Position numbers: made by a program
Assembly: GCA_039811685.1 (NCBI GenBank)
Contig: JBDHZC010000002.1
Coordinates: forward strand, 608,001 to 672,000
Reading direction: 5' to 3'
Source: Armatimonadota bacterium
Lineage (GTDB): Bacteria > Armatimonadota > UBA5829 > DSUL01
DNA length: 64,000 nt
Shown here: positions 36,001 through 45,000 of the stretch, piece by piece
How the letters are laid out: every line of letters starts with the position of its first letter
Numbering within the stretch: the first letter of the stretch is position 1

Positions 36001-39000
36001 CCCCGTTACTTCCCATCGGAACTCTGGCTTCCAATAGATCGATTCTAGAATCCCTACAGCTGCACTAGGCGTGATGATTGGGTAGCTCACGCGTTCGACC
36101 TTATTCTCCGGCCGGGTGAAGCACGCATAGCGCCCCCAAACCTTTACCTCAATGAGATGGTTTTGTGAGTGGTCAAACACAGCAATCCTCCTGAGCCATC
36201 TCGACAGTTTCACCCAACCCGAGATAAGGATGGTAAGAGCCTGTCCAAAGATGTAACCCTCCAATCCAGTTCTCCACAAGGTAAGACTCCGAGAGCCGTA
36301 GGACATCAACGTGCCTCATGCACACGGAGATCCGCTGCAGTTGCTGCCACTCCGCATCCTCAGCGAAGCCCTTAGATCGGATGCGCTCGAGGTCGTTTTT
36401 GGTTAGCCCGGCGTGGCTGATCTCGCTCCACACAAGTACCGGGAACGTCTCGTCTGCGATCATCCTGTATTCTCTCGCTACAGCTGGATAATCGAAGTGC
36501 TCGCGGCGCTCCTGGATTCTCCTACCCGTGTCCGCTACGCTCTGGTAAAAGAGCCGAAAGAAGCTTTCGTAGAGCTCCGGGTCATGAAGATCCGCGTCCC
36601 TGTCCTGCAGTTTGACCTGCGCTGCCTGCATCGCCTGCCGGTACACACCAGGTGGTGCGCTTGCGTCCGTGATCCGAAATATGTGGACATCTCCAAATGG
36701 CGGCGTATTCGGCTGACCATTACGATTGCAGCGCCCGGCTGCCTGAACAATTCGATCCAACGGACCGAATTCACGGTAAACTACGGGAAAGTCAAGGTCC
36801 ACGCCCGCCTCAACAACTTGCGTAGATATCACAATGACCCTGCGTTGAAGCGGAGGTTTGATCCTTTCCAATGTCTTCTTCCGGTGCTGAGGGTGAAGGA
36901 GAGTCGATAAATGCAGTACTTCGACGTCGTCTATCGTCTGCTGCCGGACTTTCTTCCAGAGCACCACCGCCAGTCGCTTGGTATTCGTGATCACTAATAC
37001 CGATTCCTTGTGGTGTCGAACTATCCGGCGTGCGATTTCCTCCGCCTCAGCCTCCTGCGGCTCGAAGTGGTAACAAACGCGTTTGGCCTGGCGAAACAGC
37101 TCTTTCACATTGCCCAGTATTGGTCGTGCTTGCGGGAGCGAGACAGCAAAATTCATGTTCTGCTCGAGCGCGGGTTGGGTAGCAGTGCAGAGAAGAATAG
37201 TACACCCGTAACATTCATGAACGAGTGCACGCAGCATATCCAGGGTGGGTTCCAGCAAATGCGGCGGCAGAGTCTGTACTTCGTCAAGAATTATGACGCT
37301 TCGAAGGATGTTACGAAGTTTTCGACATCGACTGCGCTTATTCGAGAACAGACTTTCGAACAGCTGAACGGTAGTTGTCACAATGATTGGAGCTTCCCAG
37401 CGGTCAGCCACATCGCGCTGACGGCGCGCGATCAACGTCTGCTCCTCCGTATCCGGCGGCTCCAGACCGCTGTGGTGCTCAATTACGGCGTCGACAGGAA
37501 GAAACTCTCGATACACTTTGGCCGTCTGGTCTATGATTGAGGTATATGGCGCCGCATATATCACTCGTCGCAGACACGTGTGAGCGCCTATATGCGCAAG
37601 TGCAAACGCCAAGGTTGCCAACGTCTTTCCCGAGCCTGTCGGGGCCGTGAGAGTGAAAAGTCCGGGATGGTCTTTCGCCTTCTCCAAGCACTCAGAATAC
37701 ACCTTTGCTCTCAACCGATCAATGGATGAGGCCGCTCTGGTGAATCTCTTCCCGTAGGTATCAAAGAAATACTTGCGACACTCAGCCACGCTGGGATAGC
37801 TTTTCCGCAGCCAGGTATGCTCGTGCTGAGCGCTATCGTAACTGTCGGCTTCGACCAGGCAAGAATAGAGGAATCGCAAGAATGGCTCTACCAACCATTT
37901 CTCACGACTCAGGAACTTGGGAAACGTAAGTGGTCGGCGGTGGGCCTCCAAGAATTTGCGGGATTTACAATCGGCAGAGTATTTGTTTCTTAGCTCTGCT
38001 AGTTGAGTTTCGTTAAGCTGGTAGATGCCACTGTGATGACCAGCGATAACGGGCCACAGGAACTCCAAGTCTTCTGTGCATAGCAGCGCGCCGTAAGGGG
38101 AATGCACTACCTCTCCACGGCGAACAGAGTTAGGCGTGTCCACGCAGCGCTTCAAATACTCCTGGAACTCTGGCCGAAACTTTCCGACGTCGTGTAGCAG
38201 CCCGGCCATGTAGCCGTAATCCCTGCCACCAAACCCTGCGGCCAACGCACCTGTAAGTCGAGCCACGCGCAGAAGATGAGGTTCAAGCTCCTGCCATTTC
38301 CCATCAGCATTGGGGGTATGTGCGTAGCACTTCTCTGTGCCTGTGTCGTCCACTACCAGCTTCTCCTGCTTGCTCATTTCTCTGCGGCGCCGTCCCTCCC
38401 CTGCCCGGTAGCCGTGTTTATCGCCTGAGCCGGACAGGGCGCCGGTGACTTCCTGACGCACAGTGTACAGCTCACCACTGTCATTTTCTGTCAGTGAAGC
38501 ACAGATCGAATGAGTTGTTGTGGGTTGTGACGGAGCTTAGTTGTCCGACGCTTGCCCTCCAAGCGGAGTGAGAAGGGGTGGAAGGCCGCGCCAACTATCA
38601 GATGACCACGTGGGGCGCGTAAGTTGACACGAGGCGAGAGCAGGTGGTGGTAAAGTGGACAGGCGGGGTGGCCTTATCGAAATCAGCCTACTGGTGTTCC
38701 GGAACCGGCTAGCTCAACCAGCTCTTTCGGTCCCCAGAGCTTGACGCCGTTGGCTCGCGCAAATGCCGTGGCCTCTGAAGAGAAACCTCCAGGCGCTGCG
38801 ACGACCGGCGTCGTGCCGGGGACCCGGTCTGGGACCACGCCACGCAACTCGCGCACCACACTAACTCCGACAGGTGAAGTCGTATTCTTACACTGGATAA
38901 TCAGCTTTGCTTCAATTTGGAGGTCATCAAGACGAACAGCTGTCAGATCAATTCCGCCGTCGTTTGACCGCGGTGTGCTTTGAACGGTAAAACCCATAGC

Positions 39001-42000: not shown

Positions 42001-45000
42001 GATCGTATCCAGCGAGTTGTCCCATCTCCCTCAGCTTCTGGCGCAATACGGTGAGGATCAGCGGCTTTCCTTCGAAATCACCCAGAATTTGCATCCGGAG
42101 CTCGTCGTCGTGTGTCTCCTCGAAAACGTGCAGAAGCGCACGAAACCGGTCGTAAATGTTTGCATCGCGAGCCCAAAGCCTGAGGTCAGCAAAAGCTGAT
42201 CCGCTAGTTCTCAAGTCGGGGGACATTGCGCGAAGGGCCTTGCCGGTCCTCCCTGGCGCCCGTGCGTTCTCTGCGAGAGCTTTCAACACAACGTGAGGAT
42301 TTCCCAACGGGATTTCGGGGCTCACGGTCAGATAGCTTGTTGCGAAATTCTTCTTCTCCGCAAGTATCTGGAGATAGTTGAGGAGATGCGACTTGCCCGC
42401 GCCAAAATTGGCGTCAATCACCATTGGTTCAGCGCACTGGCCGTCTGCCACCAGATCAAGAGAGCGTTCAAAGAGTTCTGCGACATCGCTTCTAGTGATC
42501 CCAAGTCGCTCTACGGCGTGTTTGCTCGGCACTCCAGACCGAAGCGCTTCAATGGCGCTGCGAGCTATCATGACTCTGTGCTCCATTTACTCAACCTCCA
42601 GGTGGACTAGCGCCGCTGCCGGATTCGGACGATCGCGATCTCGCACTTCCAGCCCTATTCGCGTCTGCAAAGCGTCGTAGTCCGTATAGCGGCGCGGAGA
42701 AAGCGGTTCGTAGAAAGCTGGAGAAGTCAGGACCACCAGCAACAAACCTTCAAACTGATCAATCTCGTCAATAAAGCGGCGCATCATCGAGAGCATCTGC
42801 ATGTAGGCGGCCTTTGAATAGAACAGGCGATTTTCGACAGGGGTGTGCTCTGCCATCAGACCTTCTAAGTCTTGATGCGATGCGCCGGCAGCAATGGCGC
42901 GCTTCACCTGATCAAGTATAATGCGGTCGCGCTGAGCCTTGGAAATCTTCACACTCTCATAGGGTCGAAAGTCGAGGCAGATGACGCTTCCGTTGTACCT
43001 CATCTTTCTAACCCAACGCAGAAAAGACATTAGCATGTAGCGCGCATTCGTTTGGTTAATACGTTCGTAAATCTGAAGGCGCTTTAGCGCGTTTGCTTGC
43101 CCCGTCGCCGTTTGTCCAGAAAGCCAGTGCAATAATATATCTGTGGTCGATGGCGTATAGGAATCAGGAACCAGTTGCGCACGTTGCAGCGCCAGCAGGG
43201 CAGTCCGAAATTCAATGGCCATCTCGTGATCTCGAATCTGCGGTGTTGCGAGCTCTCTCTGATATTCATTCACGAGGTCATTCGCATCCCTGCCGTTGTC
43301 GGAGGCAATGCCTTCTAAATCATCGAGAGCGCGTCCGCGAATTTCGATTCCTTTGGAAGCAAGGAATCCCTGAACCTGCTGGATTGCCAAGTCCACCCAA
43401 GGAACAGACGCAGTTATTGCGAAAAATAACTTGTCAATTCGATGCAGGTCAGGTCTCTTACCATTTGCATCGAACTCATCGGTCCTGGGCGCAACATAAT
43501 ACAAGCCCGTTTCTTCTGCCACGGCGCTAAGTTGCGCTTGTATCTTTGCAAGACACTCGTCATTTCCGCTGACGACTTTGACCGCAGATCCGCCCGCAGG
43601 CAGGTATTCGTGCAGATATTCCGCCGTGATAACATGCATCCATGCGTCTGCGCTCATCTCCTGGCGCTCAGAAGATCGAAATATTCCCATGGTCTTGTTC
43701 TACCTGAAAGTGATTCCGTAGTATCTAAGCGGTCTACCGTCTTCAGACACGACCTCAAAGATGTCAGATTCCTTCGCGCTACTGGAGGGGTACTCGAAGT
43801 CGTAACGCTTCCCAGCTTTGGTGGCGCTGATACCGGAGCGGTGTAGGGCATAAATTTCCTGTCCAAAAGCGGACTTGGGGTTATCCTTCTTGTAGCCCGG
43901 AGACAGACAAAACAGATCGTAAAGGCCCCGAAATTTGGCAAAAAACGCGCCTGAATCTTTACTAAGATATTCAACGCCCCCGTATAAAAACTCTAAGAAC
44001 TGTTGTTGGCCACCCGTATTGGCTTTGTCTCGTAGCCTTTTCAATTCTGCGGCCACGACCTTCGGACGAATAGAGCGAAATAACTTCTTGCCAATCTGAA
44101 GAATGCCGCGCGACGGCAACGCCTGCAATAGAACCGGGGACGAGATGGCCATGTTTCCCTCTAGCAGGATACGCAGACCGAACTTCTCGCCACTGGCCAA
44201 AGTCCTCAACTCGTGCTGCCACGCGCTGGAGCTGAGATACGCGTAGACGTCAAACTGCCAGGCGGCTGCCGTTTCTGATGTTCCGCCTGGCAGCGCTTGC
44301 GCGGCTTCCATTGCTTGATCGGCTGCCTTCTGCCGTGCCGCAATATCTCCCTTGGCTACAGCCTTTTTCCACGACTTCAAGGCTGACAAATACTTGCTAC
44401 CTGCCCGGATTAAAGCGTCCACTTGGGCTTCATGAGTAGCTAGAGCTTCCTCCAGAGAAGCGTCATTGTCTGGACGTCCTGGTGCTGTATTGTCGCTTGT
44501 CATGTCCAGACTAAGGTCTTGTGACTCCATTGGCCTTACCTCCTCGCTGCCCGATTACTACTGCGAAATTGCGTCTCTTTCCTGAATCGGAGACTGCATA
44601 TTTGCTAGGGTCAGAGGGCGGGAATGAGGAAGTCGTTTGTGGCGTCGGCGGAGGATACGGTTAGGCGCAGGCGGCTGTGAGGCTCGGAGTTTGCGTGGAG
44701 CCGAGTTTGGGGCAATGGCTTCCGACCGGCTTCAAAGAGGGTGACGGCAACAGTGCGCGCCCCGCGCACGCCTTCCGTCAACAAGCCCCGCAAGCCTGCT
44801 ACTGTGACCATCTTGAGCGAAGCTTGATTCACAAACTCGAGTACGTCCAGTTGTTCAGATGACTTACGAGGTCCCTGTTCATCCACCATGAGGGTGTCAC
44901 GGAAGACGCCTTGCGCATGGACGCTTGGAAATCCTTGCGCGTCAAACGGGTTGCCGGAGTGTCCGCGCTTTCACGGGAGAGGTTTGGTCGCCCGCACGAA

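Follow-up and report, generated by a model that had tools for sequence, protein, structure and literature searches.

Do five consecutive genes on the minus strand of the window, the 64,000-nucleotide stretch of Armatimonadota DNA analysed here, form an anti-invader system? The cassette looks like a horizontally moving operon that resembles an undescribed system of this kind. The reading to which we give a probability of about one half is that of an accessory, horizontally transferred, NTP-driven DNA-surveillance or restriction-type system made of two modules, an ATPase loader and an SNF2 translocase-nuclease. ORF calling places all five genes exactly where the earlier note had them, at 38683-44530 in the order p276, p367, p405, p180, p727, with intergenic gaps of 9, 0, 3 and -44 nt along the cassette. 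The features discussed below are the following.

43700..44530, minus strand: p276, opening gene of the cassette, in no known family; helical hairpin and alpha/beta region predicted
42587..43690, minus strand: p367, predicted inactive paralogue in the BrxD AAA+ family; no Walker A P-loop (PF10923, PADLOC BrxD)
41369..42586, minus strand: p405, BrxD/SngB-family AAA+ ATPase with Walker A and Walker B intact (PF10923, PADLOC)
40823..41365, minus strand: p180, GTG start; predicted EndoV/UvrC/PIWI-type RNase H fold (AF2, Foldseek, VIA-align)
38683..40866, minus strand: p727, translocase of the SNF2 family; Mrr-type nuclease at the C-terminus (Pfam)
39142..40428, minus strand: residues 147-575 of p727, its SNF2 ATPase core (Pfam and motifs of alignment A4)
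38710..39048, minus strand: residues 607-719 of p727, Mrr_cat PD-(D/E)xK nuclease domain (PF04471)
44609..44688, no strand: 80-nt direct repeat, right copy, 79 nt ahead of the start codon of p276
28889..28968, no strand: 80-nt direct repeat, left copy, just past the distal end of the CRISPR array
28984..38461, minus strand: CRISPR array and type I-C cas genes within the repeat bracket (context)

Recurrence of the operon and of its two modules

Recurrence in the same order, previously put at 24 full loci, is borne out by our count of 21 other loci that share the cassette order. Small deviations between our counts and those of the earlier note overturn none of its claims. Twenty first-tier loci were obtained with a p276 profile search, their genes being placed by tblastn; 11 carry all five genes in identical order, 7 meet a contig end with the order maintained up to that point, and the two exceptions are a locus with the first three genes only (L019) and a deletion remnant (L017). 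A second tier, reached through p180 matches, adds 10 loci of the same order, in which identity of the first four proteins is only 24-38%. The cassette loci form two deep clades with only about 28-30% identity between them, which the p405 tree splits with 100/100 support, and all five genes diverge in parallel between the two.

The operon is thus real and conserved, but the term five-gene cassette needs qualification: it is composed of a trio (p276, the P-loop-less p367 and p405, the predicted active ATPase) and a dyad (p180 and the SNF2 protein), each of which is also found alone. The trio lacks the dyad in six loci (L019, L045, L046, L047, L049 and L051), in genomes that show no p180 match and at best a distant SNF2 protein elsewhere, two of the six having zero SNF2 matches at E<=1e-30. 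Conversely, the dyad stands without the trio in 8 of the 10 fetched Planctomycetota loci, where p180 immediately precedes the SNF2 gene, as well as in L030 and L031, and L052 has the trio and an SNF2 gene without p180. Since the dyad occurs alone in Planctomycetota, trio and dyad need not work jointly, and they might be two independent systems whose shared order reflects co-transfer rather than mechanism. All of these partial loci favour such independence, and the lone trios and the lone Planctomycetota dyads also weigh against a joint surveillance system. We nevertheless regard independence as quite improbable in view of the fixed order, the 3-nt gap between p405 and p180, the presence of both modules in 47/49 genomes and the parallel divergence of all five genes over both deep clades. 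Representative P0234, in which a BrxD-like C-terminus is joined to p180, points the same way, this lone metagenomic fusion being possibly an artefact.

Within the phylum sample the distribution is patchy, as the earlier note had reported for p276 (46/301 genomes, none of four in the own family). The p276 profile is found in 67/401 genomes (51/300 of good quality) and the p180 profile in 56/401 (47/300 of good quality), with 0/5 in the own family for both; of the 49 Armatimonadota genomes in which p180 is matched at E<=1e-12, 47 have p276 as well. In the p405 tree the window copy clusters with copies from other orders and from two Planctomycetota, and the three copies of its own class fall elsewhere. 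Eight p180 matches of the phylum sample contain internal stops, broken cassette copies are seen at L013, L028 and L033, and extra nuclease genes are inserted at L001. The cassette bears the marks of an accessory, horizontally moving module. No relatives of p276 or p405 were found in plasmid sequences, nor of p405 in phage sequences, in keeping with the reported absence from plasmids and viruses; this counts against a surveillance system.

Predicted properties of the five proteins

Both ATPases match PF10923 (BrxC_BrxD; E 2.9e-9 for p367 and 7.7e-21 for p405) and the PADLOC BrxD model (1.2e-9 and 2.9e-14), p405 matches SngB as well (2.6e-10), and the NCBIfam BrxD scores of p405 and p367 are 54 and 37 bits, where the cut-off is 350. 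They had been described as a BrxD-like ATPase pair, of which the family membership stands but not the implied equivalence. The GK[ST] P-loop motif is missing in 28/28 aligned p367-family members, and FGxGK[ST]H (Walker A) and DE (Walker B) are both present in 23/23 p405-family members. From these motifs p405 is predicted to be an active ATPase and p367 its inactive paralogue, and the retention of this pairing in all aligned p405 and p367 sequences argues for the surveillance or restriction-type reading.

The claim that p276 and p180 belong to no family holds for Pfam, PADLOC, NCBIfam and PHROGs. Twenty-five p276-family sequences scanned at E<=1 gave no family-database match, and no TerB domain was found in p276, whose relatives number 116 after 90% clustering. 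In the AF2 model of p276 (pLDDT 91.4; 90.5 in the earlier note), residues 26-90 make a long helical hairpin and residues 95-276 an alpha/beta region, and structural matches are again confined to the hairpin.

The p180 family comprises 146 representatives at E<=1e-10 (141 previously) and 266 at E<=1e-3. None of 68 sequences (the window protein and 67 aligned relatives) matches a Pfam family at E<=1, and p180 has no Endonuclease_5 match. Its AF2 model (pLDDT 89.3) is matched by Foldseek to the C-terminal half of UvrC (2nrv, E 3.1e-6, TM 0.45) and to EndoV (3hd0, E 1.8e-5), and by VIA-align to AfAgo (Z 10.0) and EndoV (Z 9.8 over 143 residues, rmsd 3.8), close to the 85.6, 1.3e-5 and 10.2 given before for pLDDT, EndoV E-value and Z; sequence identity to EndoV and UvrC in these matches is 9-20%. 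The model thereby predicts an EndoV/UvrC/PIWI-type RNase H fold. Of the label EndoV/PIWI-like, the fold is upheld but the active site is not: the first-strand position that holds the canonical Asp of RNase H-fold nucleases is Arg or Lys in 44/68 relatives (Arg in the window protein), and conservation analysis finds no conserved catalytic residue set. A nuclease role appears unlikely because of this substitution. E152 and R156 are conserved, four residues apart in a C-terminal helix. Natural p180-SNF2 fusions exist (representatives P0274, 666 aa, and P0256), and p180 is probably an adaptor or accessory subunit of the SNF2 motor.

In p727, Pfam recognises SNF2-rel_dom (residues 163-408), Helicase_C (425-531) and Mrr_cat (E 1.4e-24, residues 607-719), the last with a D...QxK motif as judged by eye. 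Of the proteins with a solved structure, the Sulfolobus Rad54-like SNF2 (1z63) is nearest (E 5.7e-62), and the helicase motifs are invariant in alignment A4. The first ~115 residues vary, so the true start may lie downstream of the annotated one. PADLOC ZorD models match p727 at 3e-71 through generic SNF2 and Mrr parts only, and the NCBIfam ZorD score is 148 bits, with the cut-off at 1500. As had been noted (8/24), Mrr is kept in a minority of cassettes, being present in 6 and missing in 12 of the 18 assessable cassette SNF2 rows of alignment A4. Since p180 also lacks a conserved catalytic set, most cassette versions are without a recognisable nuclease, which weighs against a restriction-type system. 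Mrr, Uma2 and DUF5677 additions are seen among the cassettes.

Genomic setting and possible mode of action

The neighbours named in the earlier note are indeed alongside the cassette: a type I-C CRISPR-Cas locus with a complete gene set (cas2, cas1, cas4, cas7, cas8c, cas5 and cas3) and an array at 28984-30303 with 19 repeats of 37 nt, and a PLD-helicase-DUF3427 gene. The 80-nt direct repeat has exactly two copies genome-wide, which enclose 15.7 kb containing the cassette, the cas genes and the array, all co-directional. The composition is foreign: the GC content of the cassette is 53.9% (genome mean 57.8%), below 99.9% of 5.8-kb windows, and the 15.6-kb block falls in the top 1.1% of the genome by tetranucleotide distance. 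A tRNA-Met gene lies 5.5 kb away.

Such a block, co-directional, foreign, bracketed by unique repeats and near a tRNA gene, would suit a cassette that serves the mobile island itself, through maintenance, competitor exclusion or help to CRISPR-Cas, rather than the host. This appears very unlikely: no integrase, relaxase or replication gene is found within the block, no cas gene is near the cassette in the 52 other loci fetched, neighbourhoods vary between loci, and the plasmid and phage searches recovered no relatives.

The flanks of other loci also bear on an anti-invader role. Neither cas genes nor the PLD-helicase occur in those 52 loci. Among 60 flanking ORFs of 7 loci, the only conflict-type Pfam matches are MqsA, ParE, PIN and DUF4351, and PADLOC yields one clear match, DarT, plus a few generic ones among 96 ORFs of 14 loci. 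Housekeeping genes predominate, so that the scarcity of defence genes reported earlier is reproduced, against a surveillance system. These flanks would agree with a genome-maintenance or transcription-associated machine, in which the ATPase trio guides an SNF2 protein of the RapA/Mfd/Rad54 kind and p180 to stalled polymerases, lesions or replication-transcription conflicts. Further points in favour are an Mfd/TRCF gene that adjoins the trio in L045 and lies <=3 kb away in L002, the kinship of the p180 fold with the repair nucleases UvrC and EndoV, the missing nuclease of most versions, and the stand-alone p180-like and SNF2 dyad of two Planctomycetota genomes (L040 and L044), with neighbours of similar size. 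We hold this machine to be unlikely, since a p180 match in 56/401 genomes and none of five in the own family, a tree at odds with taxonomy, copies in a second phylum, broken copies, and foreign composition within direct repeats all oppose it, and Mrr, Uma2 and DUF5677 additions typify conflict systems rather than core repair.

The surveillance or restriction-type system we prefer is favoured by the operon packing, co-inheritance and p180-SNF2 linkage, by the accessory behaviour (patchy spread, tree against taxonomy, broken copies, inserted nucleases), and by the foreign composition, repeat bracket and CRISPR-Cas and PLD-helicase-DUF3427 neighbours. In such a system, p405 would be an active ORC/Cdc6-like BrxD-family ATPase, p367 its P-loop-less paralogue and p276 a coiled-coil hairpin with an alpha/beta domain that possibly binds DNA; the three may form a hetero-oligomer that senses incoming or aberrant DNA, with ATP binding and hydrolysis as the switch. 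This module would recruit or load onto the target DNA the second one, in which p727 would be a double-strand DNA translocase and the catalytically degenerate p180 its accessory or adaptor. The motor would then track along the DNA, and the variant of this genome would cut the target with its fused Mrr PD-(D/E)xK domain; where Mrr is missing, replication of the invader may be hindered by the motor on its own or by a host nuclease.

Relation to known systems

PADLOC-DB 2023 does not recognise the cassette as a system, as stated before, and identity with Shango, BREX, Zorya, DISARM or Dpd was rejected, matches being to single components only. The best structural matches of the p180 model are EndoV and the C-terminal nuclease domain of UvrC, yet identity is low, Endonuclease_5 is not matched and acidic residues are not conserved at the places the fold requires.

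Burroughs et al. 2013 reportedly described gene clusters of PIWI-RE, DinG helicase and restriction endonuclease. The available part of PMC10991935 presents these as an RNase H-fold, PIWI-like protein, mostly without the catalytic tetrad, whose gene accompanies those of an SF2 helicase and a PD-(D/E)xK nuclease, a theme that the cassette shares. However, p180 has just 180 residues without MID or N-terminal modules, matches no Pfam family, pairs with SNF2 rather than DinG, and has its conserved Glu and Arg four residues apart, whereas PsPIWI-RE has R639 and E718.

An SNF2 motor with a C-terminal PD-(D/E)xK or Mrr-type nuclease, as in p727, has precedents in ZorD of type I Zorya and, in the portion of PMC12839542 available, in BREX-related type 1 helicases, which supports the preferred reading. 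The ZorD match falls far short of the NCBIfam cut-off, the other four proteins match no Zorya or DUF499 model, and the Mrr domain is optional in the cassette.

Shango, a TerB protein, ATPase and DEAD/DEAH helicase with anti-phage activity in the available part of 10.1101/2022.11.11.516204, likewise combines an ATPase and a helicase in a three-part theme with an additional non-enzymatic first gene, and p405 matches SngB. In contrast to the TerB protein SngA, p276 has no TerB domain; the SngA model has no match in the genome (its control likewise matched nowhere), the SngC model matches other helicases of the genome but not p727, and Shango lacks p180 and the second ATPase.

Relative to BREX, the cassette helicase is SNF2 rather than Ski2/Lhr-like as in BrxHI, the ATPase comes as two paralogues, one predicted inactive, both far under the NCBIfam BrxD cut-off, PglZ was not found genome-wide nor PglX, PglW or BrxC beside the cassette, and p276 and p180 have no counterpart. 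The likeness lies in a stand-alone ORC/Cdc6-like BrxD-family AAA+ ATPase encoded beside an SF2 helicase, as in the BrxD-BrxHI dyad of type 2 BREX, where BrxD is proposed to be a helicase loader or activator (PMC12839542, in the part available). Together with Shango, this dyad provides a precedent in conflict systems for the pairing of ATPase and helicase that we propose.

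A recurrent five-gene cassette

The cassette consists of five minus-strand ORFs at 38683-44530, with gaps of 9, 0 and 3 nt between the first four and an overlap of 44 nt in the last pair (p180/p727), so that it reads as one translationally coupled operon. Promoter and terminator scans gave no signal above chance.

43700-44530, minus strand: p276
42587-43690, minus strand: p367, ATPase of the BrxC_BrxD family
41369-42586, minus strand: p405, ATPase of the BrxC_BrxD family
40823-41365, minus strand: p180
38683-40866, minus strand: p727, SNF2 protein with C-terminal Mrr domain

The earlier note had described these genes as a module of fixed order, and this observation is borne out and extended, since the order recurs both in loci found with a p276 profile and in loci derived from p180. 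Among the 20 loci retrieved with the p276 profile from species-representative genomes, 11 hold the complete set in identical order and 7 end at a contig border, up to which the order agrees. One locus (L019) has the first three genes only, with p180 absent from its whole genome, and another (L017, 1181-2108) is a deletion remnant in which p276 is truncated at residue 238 and followed directly by the last 80 residues (the Mrr part) of the SNF2 protein. Ten loci from weaker p180 matches have the five genes in unchanged order, their first four proteins being only 24-38% identical to those of the window. In a sample of 401 genomes of the phylum, the p180 profile detected its family in 56; none of the five genomes from the window's own family has it, and p276 also occurs in 47 of the 49 genomes having a p180 match at E<=1e-12. 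The recurrence of the cassette is more than chance.

A maximum-likelihood tree of p405 was built from 23 rows, excluding cut, broken or short sequences and the later loci L045-L052; in it the cassettes fall into two clades (support 100/100). Between p405 and p180, one second-clade cassette contains a further ORF of 345 aa that lacks a Pfam family (L021:7328-8365, plus strand). Another locus has the full set of cassette genes, interrupted between p367 and p405 by two additional ones (L001:11846-13182), of which one codes for a putative restriction endonuclease of the Uma2 type and one for a DUF5677 protein. It should be noted that the record of this locus is titled as a Janthinobacterium lividum MAG; its contig number and coordinates are identical to those of an Armatimonadota sample genome (G346) and its flanks do not look proteobacterial, leaving the organism label doubtful. 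The ORF upstream of the window's cassette ('p92', 44611-44889) was rejected as a member, having no relative in any locus and overlapping an 80-nt repeat.

Two ATPases, an RNase H fold and an SNF2 motor

Both p405 (74.9 bits) and p367 (36.8 bits) exceed the gathering score of PF10923 BrxC_BrxD (DUF2791; 22.2 bits) and are its sole matches in the genome. Both are likewise matched by the PADLOC and NCBIfam models for BrxD, with scores on the NCBIfam BrxD equivalog NF033438 of 54.2 and 36.9 bits, far under the cut-off of 350, so that neither qualifies as a BrxD equivalog. Against the PADLOC model for SngB, the Shango ATPase, p405 gives E 2.6e-10, weaker than its own BrxD match (2.9e-14). The Walker A motif FGxGK[ST]H and the Walker B DE are kept in all 23 p405 sequences aligned (the window protein and 22 relatives), and a GK[ST] P-loop at the equivalent place is found in 0 of 28 p367 sequences. 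The pair is therefore predicted to comprise one live and one dead paralogue, an arrangement that, as read from these motifs, is conserved across both clades.

The first protein, p276, is modelled with a pLDDT of 91.4 as a helical hairpin of 65 residues and, after it, an alpha/beta region. Fold searches (Foldseek against the PDB, and VIA in a wide search and a second look) returned matches confined to the generic hairpin (residues 25-93), and an Atlas search with residues 95-276 gave unnamed hypothetical clusters only. By eye, residues 197-261 of the model are a candidate winged helix. No match to p276 was found in Pfam, PADLOC, NCBIfam or PHROGs, 25 individually scanned relatives likewise lacked a family, and sequence searches of the PDB with p276, p367 and p405 gave nothing meaningful.

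For p180 the earlier note had proposed an endonuclease V/PIWI-like protein; the fold is confirmed, and the nuclease that it implied is not. The AlphaFold2 model (21 sequences; pLDDT 89.3, pTM 0.85) is a single domain with a beta-beta-beta-alpha-beta-alpha-beta core. Its best Foldseek matches in the PDB are the C-terminal half of UvrC (E 3.1e-6, TM 0.45) and endonuclease V (E 1.8e-5); matches to these two proteins span E 3.1e-6 to 1e-4, with VIA-align Z of 9.3-9.8. The top VIA-align matches are the Archaeoglobus Argonaute AfAgo (Z 10.0, rmsd 4.2, 159 residues) and endonuclease V (Z 9.8, rmsd 3.8, 143 residues), and the agreement of Foldseek with an independent aligner confirms the fold assignment. 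A BFVD search gave generic endonuclease V and RNase H matches only.

Nucleases of the RNase H fold carry their first catalytic Asp in the first strand. In p180 the strand-1 position 21 is R or K in 44 of 68 sequences (Arg in the window protein) and acidic in 9, and the only widely acidic positions are E46 (91%) and E152 (99%). P44 and R156 alone are invariant across the 68 representatives, and the best-conserved polar residues, E152 and R156, lie in a C-terminal helix. Judged from the topology of the model, p180 probably lacks the canonical first catalytic acid. Pfam gave no match at E<=1 for p180 or its 68 relatives, which places none of them in the EndoV/UvrC nuclease domain by sequence; these 68, scanned individually, matched no family, and p180 itself also lacks a match in PADLOC, NCBIfam and PHROGs. 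Endonuclease V (PF04493) was not found in the genome, in a search whose control gave matches in 7 genomes. With 180 residues, a single domain and no Pfam match, p180 is not a member of Argonaute or PIWI-RE, and its PIWI likeness is at the level of the fold.

In two representatives that share less than 50% identity (P0274, 666 aa; P0256, truncated), an SNF2 helicase carries a fused p180-like domain at its N-terminus, and in one representative (P0234) a BrxD-like C-terminus is joined to p180. These fusions suggest that p180 may serve the SNF2 motor as an accessory or adaptor without catalytic activity. They were seen in the representative library only; a search of a word-indexed database for longer, fused forms gave none, which is weak evidence. 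The predicted complex of p727 (residues 115-600) with p180 scored 0.37, the control 0.36.

The motor itself, p727, belongs to SNF2 by its N-lobe (PF00176, E 8e-49) and Helicase_C domain (PF00271, E 1.8e-16), with motifs invariant in an alignment of p727-type proteins, and among solved structures it is closest to 1z63, the Rad54-like SNF2 protein of Sulfolobus (E 5.7e-62). A PHROGs search of the cassette matched the SNF2 core only. The C-terminal Mrr_cat domain (PF04471, E 1.4e-24, profile positions 3-114 of 115) is of the Mrr-type PD-(D/E)xK kind; the D and QxK residues of the D...(E/Q)xK motif were seen by eye in the same alignment, and the domain is a predicted nuclease. It is present in 6 of the 18 assessable cassette SNF2 proteins (window, L003, L018, L020, L021 and L026), with the motif lysine substituted in L021.

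Separable modules, mobility and possible function

Profiles built from each family and run over further loci allowed the trio (p276, p367 and p405) to be traced apart from the dyad (p180 and its SNF2 partner). The trio stands by itself among housekeeping genes in six loci (L045, L046, L047, L049, L051 and L019). No downstream gene is common to these loci, whose genomes hold distant SNF2 proteins elsewhere or none, and a shared alternative effector was rejected because the ORFs that follow are related neither to one another nor to p180. In L052 the trio is directly followed by SNF2, with no p180. A p180-like gene occurs in 25 of 401 sampled Planctomycetota genomes and, in 8 of 10 loci fetched from that phylum, immediately precedes an SNF2 gene of the p727 type, the trio being absent. 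The occurrence of trio alone and dyad alone points to the five-gene cassette as a frequent union of a sensor/loader-like trio with a motor dyad. We consider the cassette most likely to be a two-module, ATP-driven anti-invader DNA system (probability about one half), in which the loader trio would recruit the SNF2 motor and, in this genome, the motor would carry a nuclease. The same separate occurrences bear on a reading of trio and dyad as two independent neighbouring systems, which, set beside the fixed order of all five genes, seems to us quite improbable.

In the window the cassette is part of a larger unit:

28889-28968 and 44609-44688: 80-nt direct repeat, 94% identical, sharp ends, only two copies in the genome
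28984-38461, minus strand: complete type I-C CRISPR-Cas, array of 19 x 37 nt, then cas2, cas1, cas4, cas7, cas8c, cas5, cas3
25740-28820, minus strand: 1026-aa protein with PLD nuclease, SF2 helicase and DUF3427, just outside the block

One repeat copy lies 79 nt upstream of p276 and the other shortly beyond the distal end of the CRISPR array, so that 15.7 kb are enclosed between them: the cassette, the cas genes in the order cas3-cas5-cas8c-cas7-cas4-cas1-cas2, and the array with its 19 repeats. The cas7 gene is intact (32599-33552, minus strand), and the orientation of the repeats suggests that the CRISPR leader adjoins cas2. The PLD-helicase-DUF3427 protein resembles a type IV restriction enzyme. 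When the genome is cut into windows of the cassette's size, 99.9% of them have a higher GC content than its 53.9% (mean 57.8%, sd 1.4%), and the 15.6-kb block is in the top 1.1% of the genome for tetranucleotide distance. In the p405 tree the window's copy clusters with those of Chthonomonadales, Capsulimonadaceae, Fimbriimonadales and two Planctomycetota, and three copies from its own class are in the other clade. Stop codons interrupt 8 p180 matches, and genes are split in L013, L028 and L033; some of these broken copies may be errors of draft metagenome assemblies. That the genes serve the mobile island itself is a reading to which the bounding repeats and deviant composition are relevant; no integrase was found inside the block, and no relatives of p276 or p405 on plasmids or of p405 in phages, and we hold this function to be very unlikely. 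The five same-family genomes are too distant and not syntenic, so island borders could not be mapped by synteny.

Several other genes lie near the block. Directly upstream (44971-46151, minus strand) are genes for an ArsR-type regulator and a SAM methyltransferase (Methyltransf_31), which as a pair look suited to methylating a small molecule rather than DNA, and are not kept beside the cassette in other loci. A HEAT-repeat gene in which a 93-nt unit (repeat family D2) occurs seven times in diverged form follows at 48905-50095 (minus strand). A tRNA-Met gene (50097-50173, minus strand) is 5.5 kb from the cassette, and beyond it is a WYL/WCX/HTH regulator (51426-52394, minus strand), of a kind often linked to defence loci.

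Neighbourhoods beyond this window are ordinary, which counts against the defence reading. Pfam found only MqsA, ParE, PIN and DUF4351 as conflict-type genes among 60 flanking ORFs of 7 loci, and PADLOC, applied to 96 flanking ORFs of 14 loci, gave a few generic matches and one clear one, a DarT toxin gene (E 3.5e-70) 4.4 kb from a trio-only locus (L019:1682-2341, minus strand). An Mfd/TRCF gene is directly upstream of the trio in L045 (12024-15569, minus strand); in L002 one is found 3 kb away from the cassette (18367-20745, minus strand), and both placements may be coincidence. Neither cas genes nor the PLD-helicase occur in the 52 other loci; the idea of a CRISPR-associated module was rejected because none of these 52 has cas genes. 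A role in genome maintenance has to be weighed here, with such ordinary flanks on one side and the repeat-bracketed block of this window, with its deviant composition, on the other, and we regard it as unlikely; should it prove a repair machine, the cassette would still bring to light a new accessory subunit of SNF2.

The anti-invader reading can also be cast in a more specific form, which we think is distinctly unlikely as a whole: a bipartite immune machine in which the ORC-like live/dead ATPases and p276 as a coiled-coil protein would sense foreign DNA and, by way of p180 as a disarmed PIWI/EndoV-fold adaptor, would load the chromatin-remodeller-type SNF2 motor. Invaders would then be beaten mainly by translocation, protein stripping or replication block, with the nuclease an optional add-on because two thirds of versions lack it. 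In this window the cassette and the type I-C system appear to travel as one repeat-bounded mobile block, a hint of possible cooperation with Cas3.

If validated, the two-module system would add a defence system from the little-studied phyla Armatimonadota and Planctomycetota, two protein families that have no current annotation, and a case of an RNase H/PIWI-type fold reused as the non-catalytic partner of an SNF2 motor. The natural versions (trio alone, dyad alone, both, with or without Mrr) offer ready-made comparisons for separating the sensing part from the acting part.

Relation to known systems

Four known groups of systems were considered and rejected as identities for the cassette.

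1. BREX type 2 (Pgl). PglZ (PF08665) is absent from the genome, which is 97% complete (the control gave matches in 2 genomes), no match to PglX, PglW or BrxC lies beside the cassette, and the BrxD equivalog score is far under its cut-off.

2. Shango. TerB has no match at E<=1 in p276 or 25 relatives, and PF05099 none in the genome (control matches in 4 genomes). The SngC model PDLC03960 misses p727 and matches four other places in the genome (best 6.2e-64, contig 7); the PADLOC SngA model has no match in the genome, its control being equally silent.

3. Zorya type I, with its ZorA/ZorB motor and ZorC with ZorD. Zorya models match p727 only (ZorD), at 148 bits against an NCBIfam cut-off of 1500, and none of the other four proteins; the cassette shares only the generic SNF2 and Mrr parts.

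4. DISARM, with DrmA, DrmB and DrmC, and Dpd, with DpdA-C and further Dpd genes. The DrmD and DpdE models match only the SNF2 core of p727, with NCBIfam scores far under their cut-offs, and the remaining genes have no Drm or Dpd match.

A literature search found no paper that describes an ATPase of the BrxD/DUF2791 type together with an SNF2 helicase and the partners seen here; supplementary tables of the cited papers, which lie outside that search, could list a candidate. Likenesses of parts are nevertheless evident. The theme of RNase H fold, helicase and REase in PIWI-RE clusters, as described in PMC10991935, recalls the cassette with no detectable homology, and ZorD and BREX-related type 1 helicases are, like p727, fusions of SNF2 and nuclease. 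As in the cassette, an ATPase gene adjoins an SF2 helicase gene in BREX-2 and Shango. According to PMC12839542, BrxD is an ORC/Cdc6-type AAA+ ATPase whose gene forms a tight dyad with that of the BrxHI helicase, which it may load. If validated, the cassette would provide a clean natural pair of active and inactive BrxD-type ATPases that could help explain the roles of BrxD and SngB in BREX and Shango.
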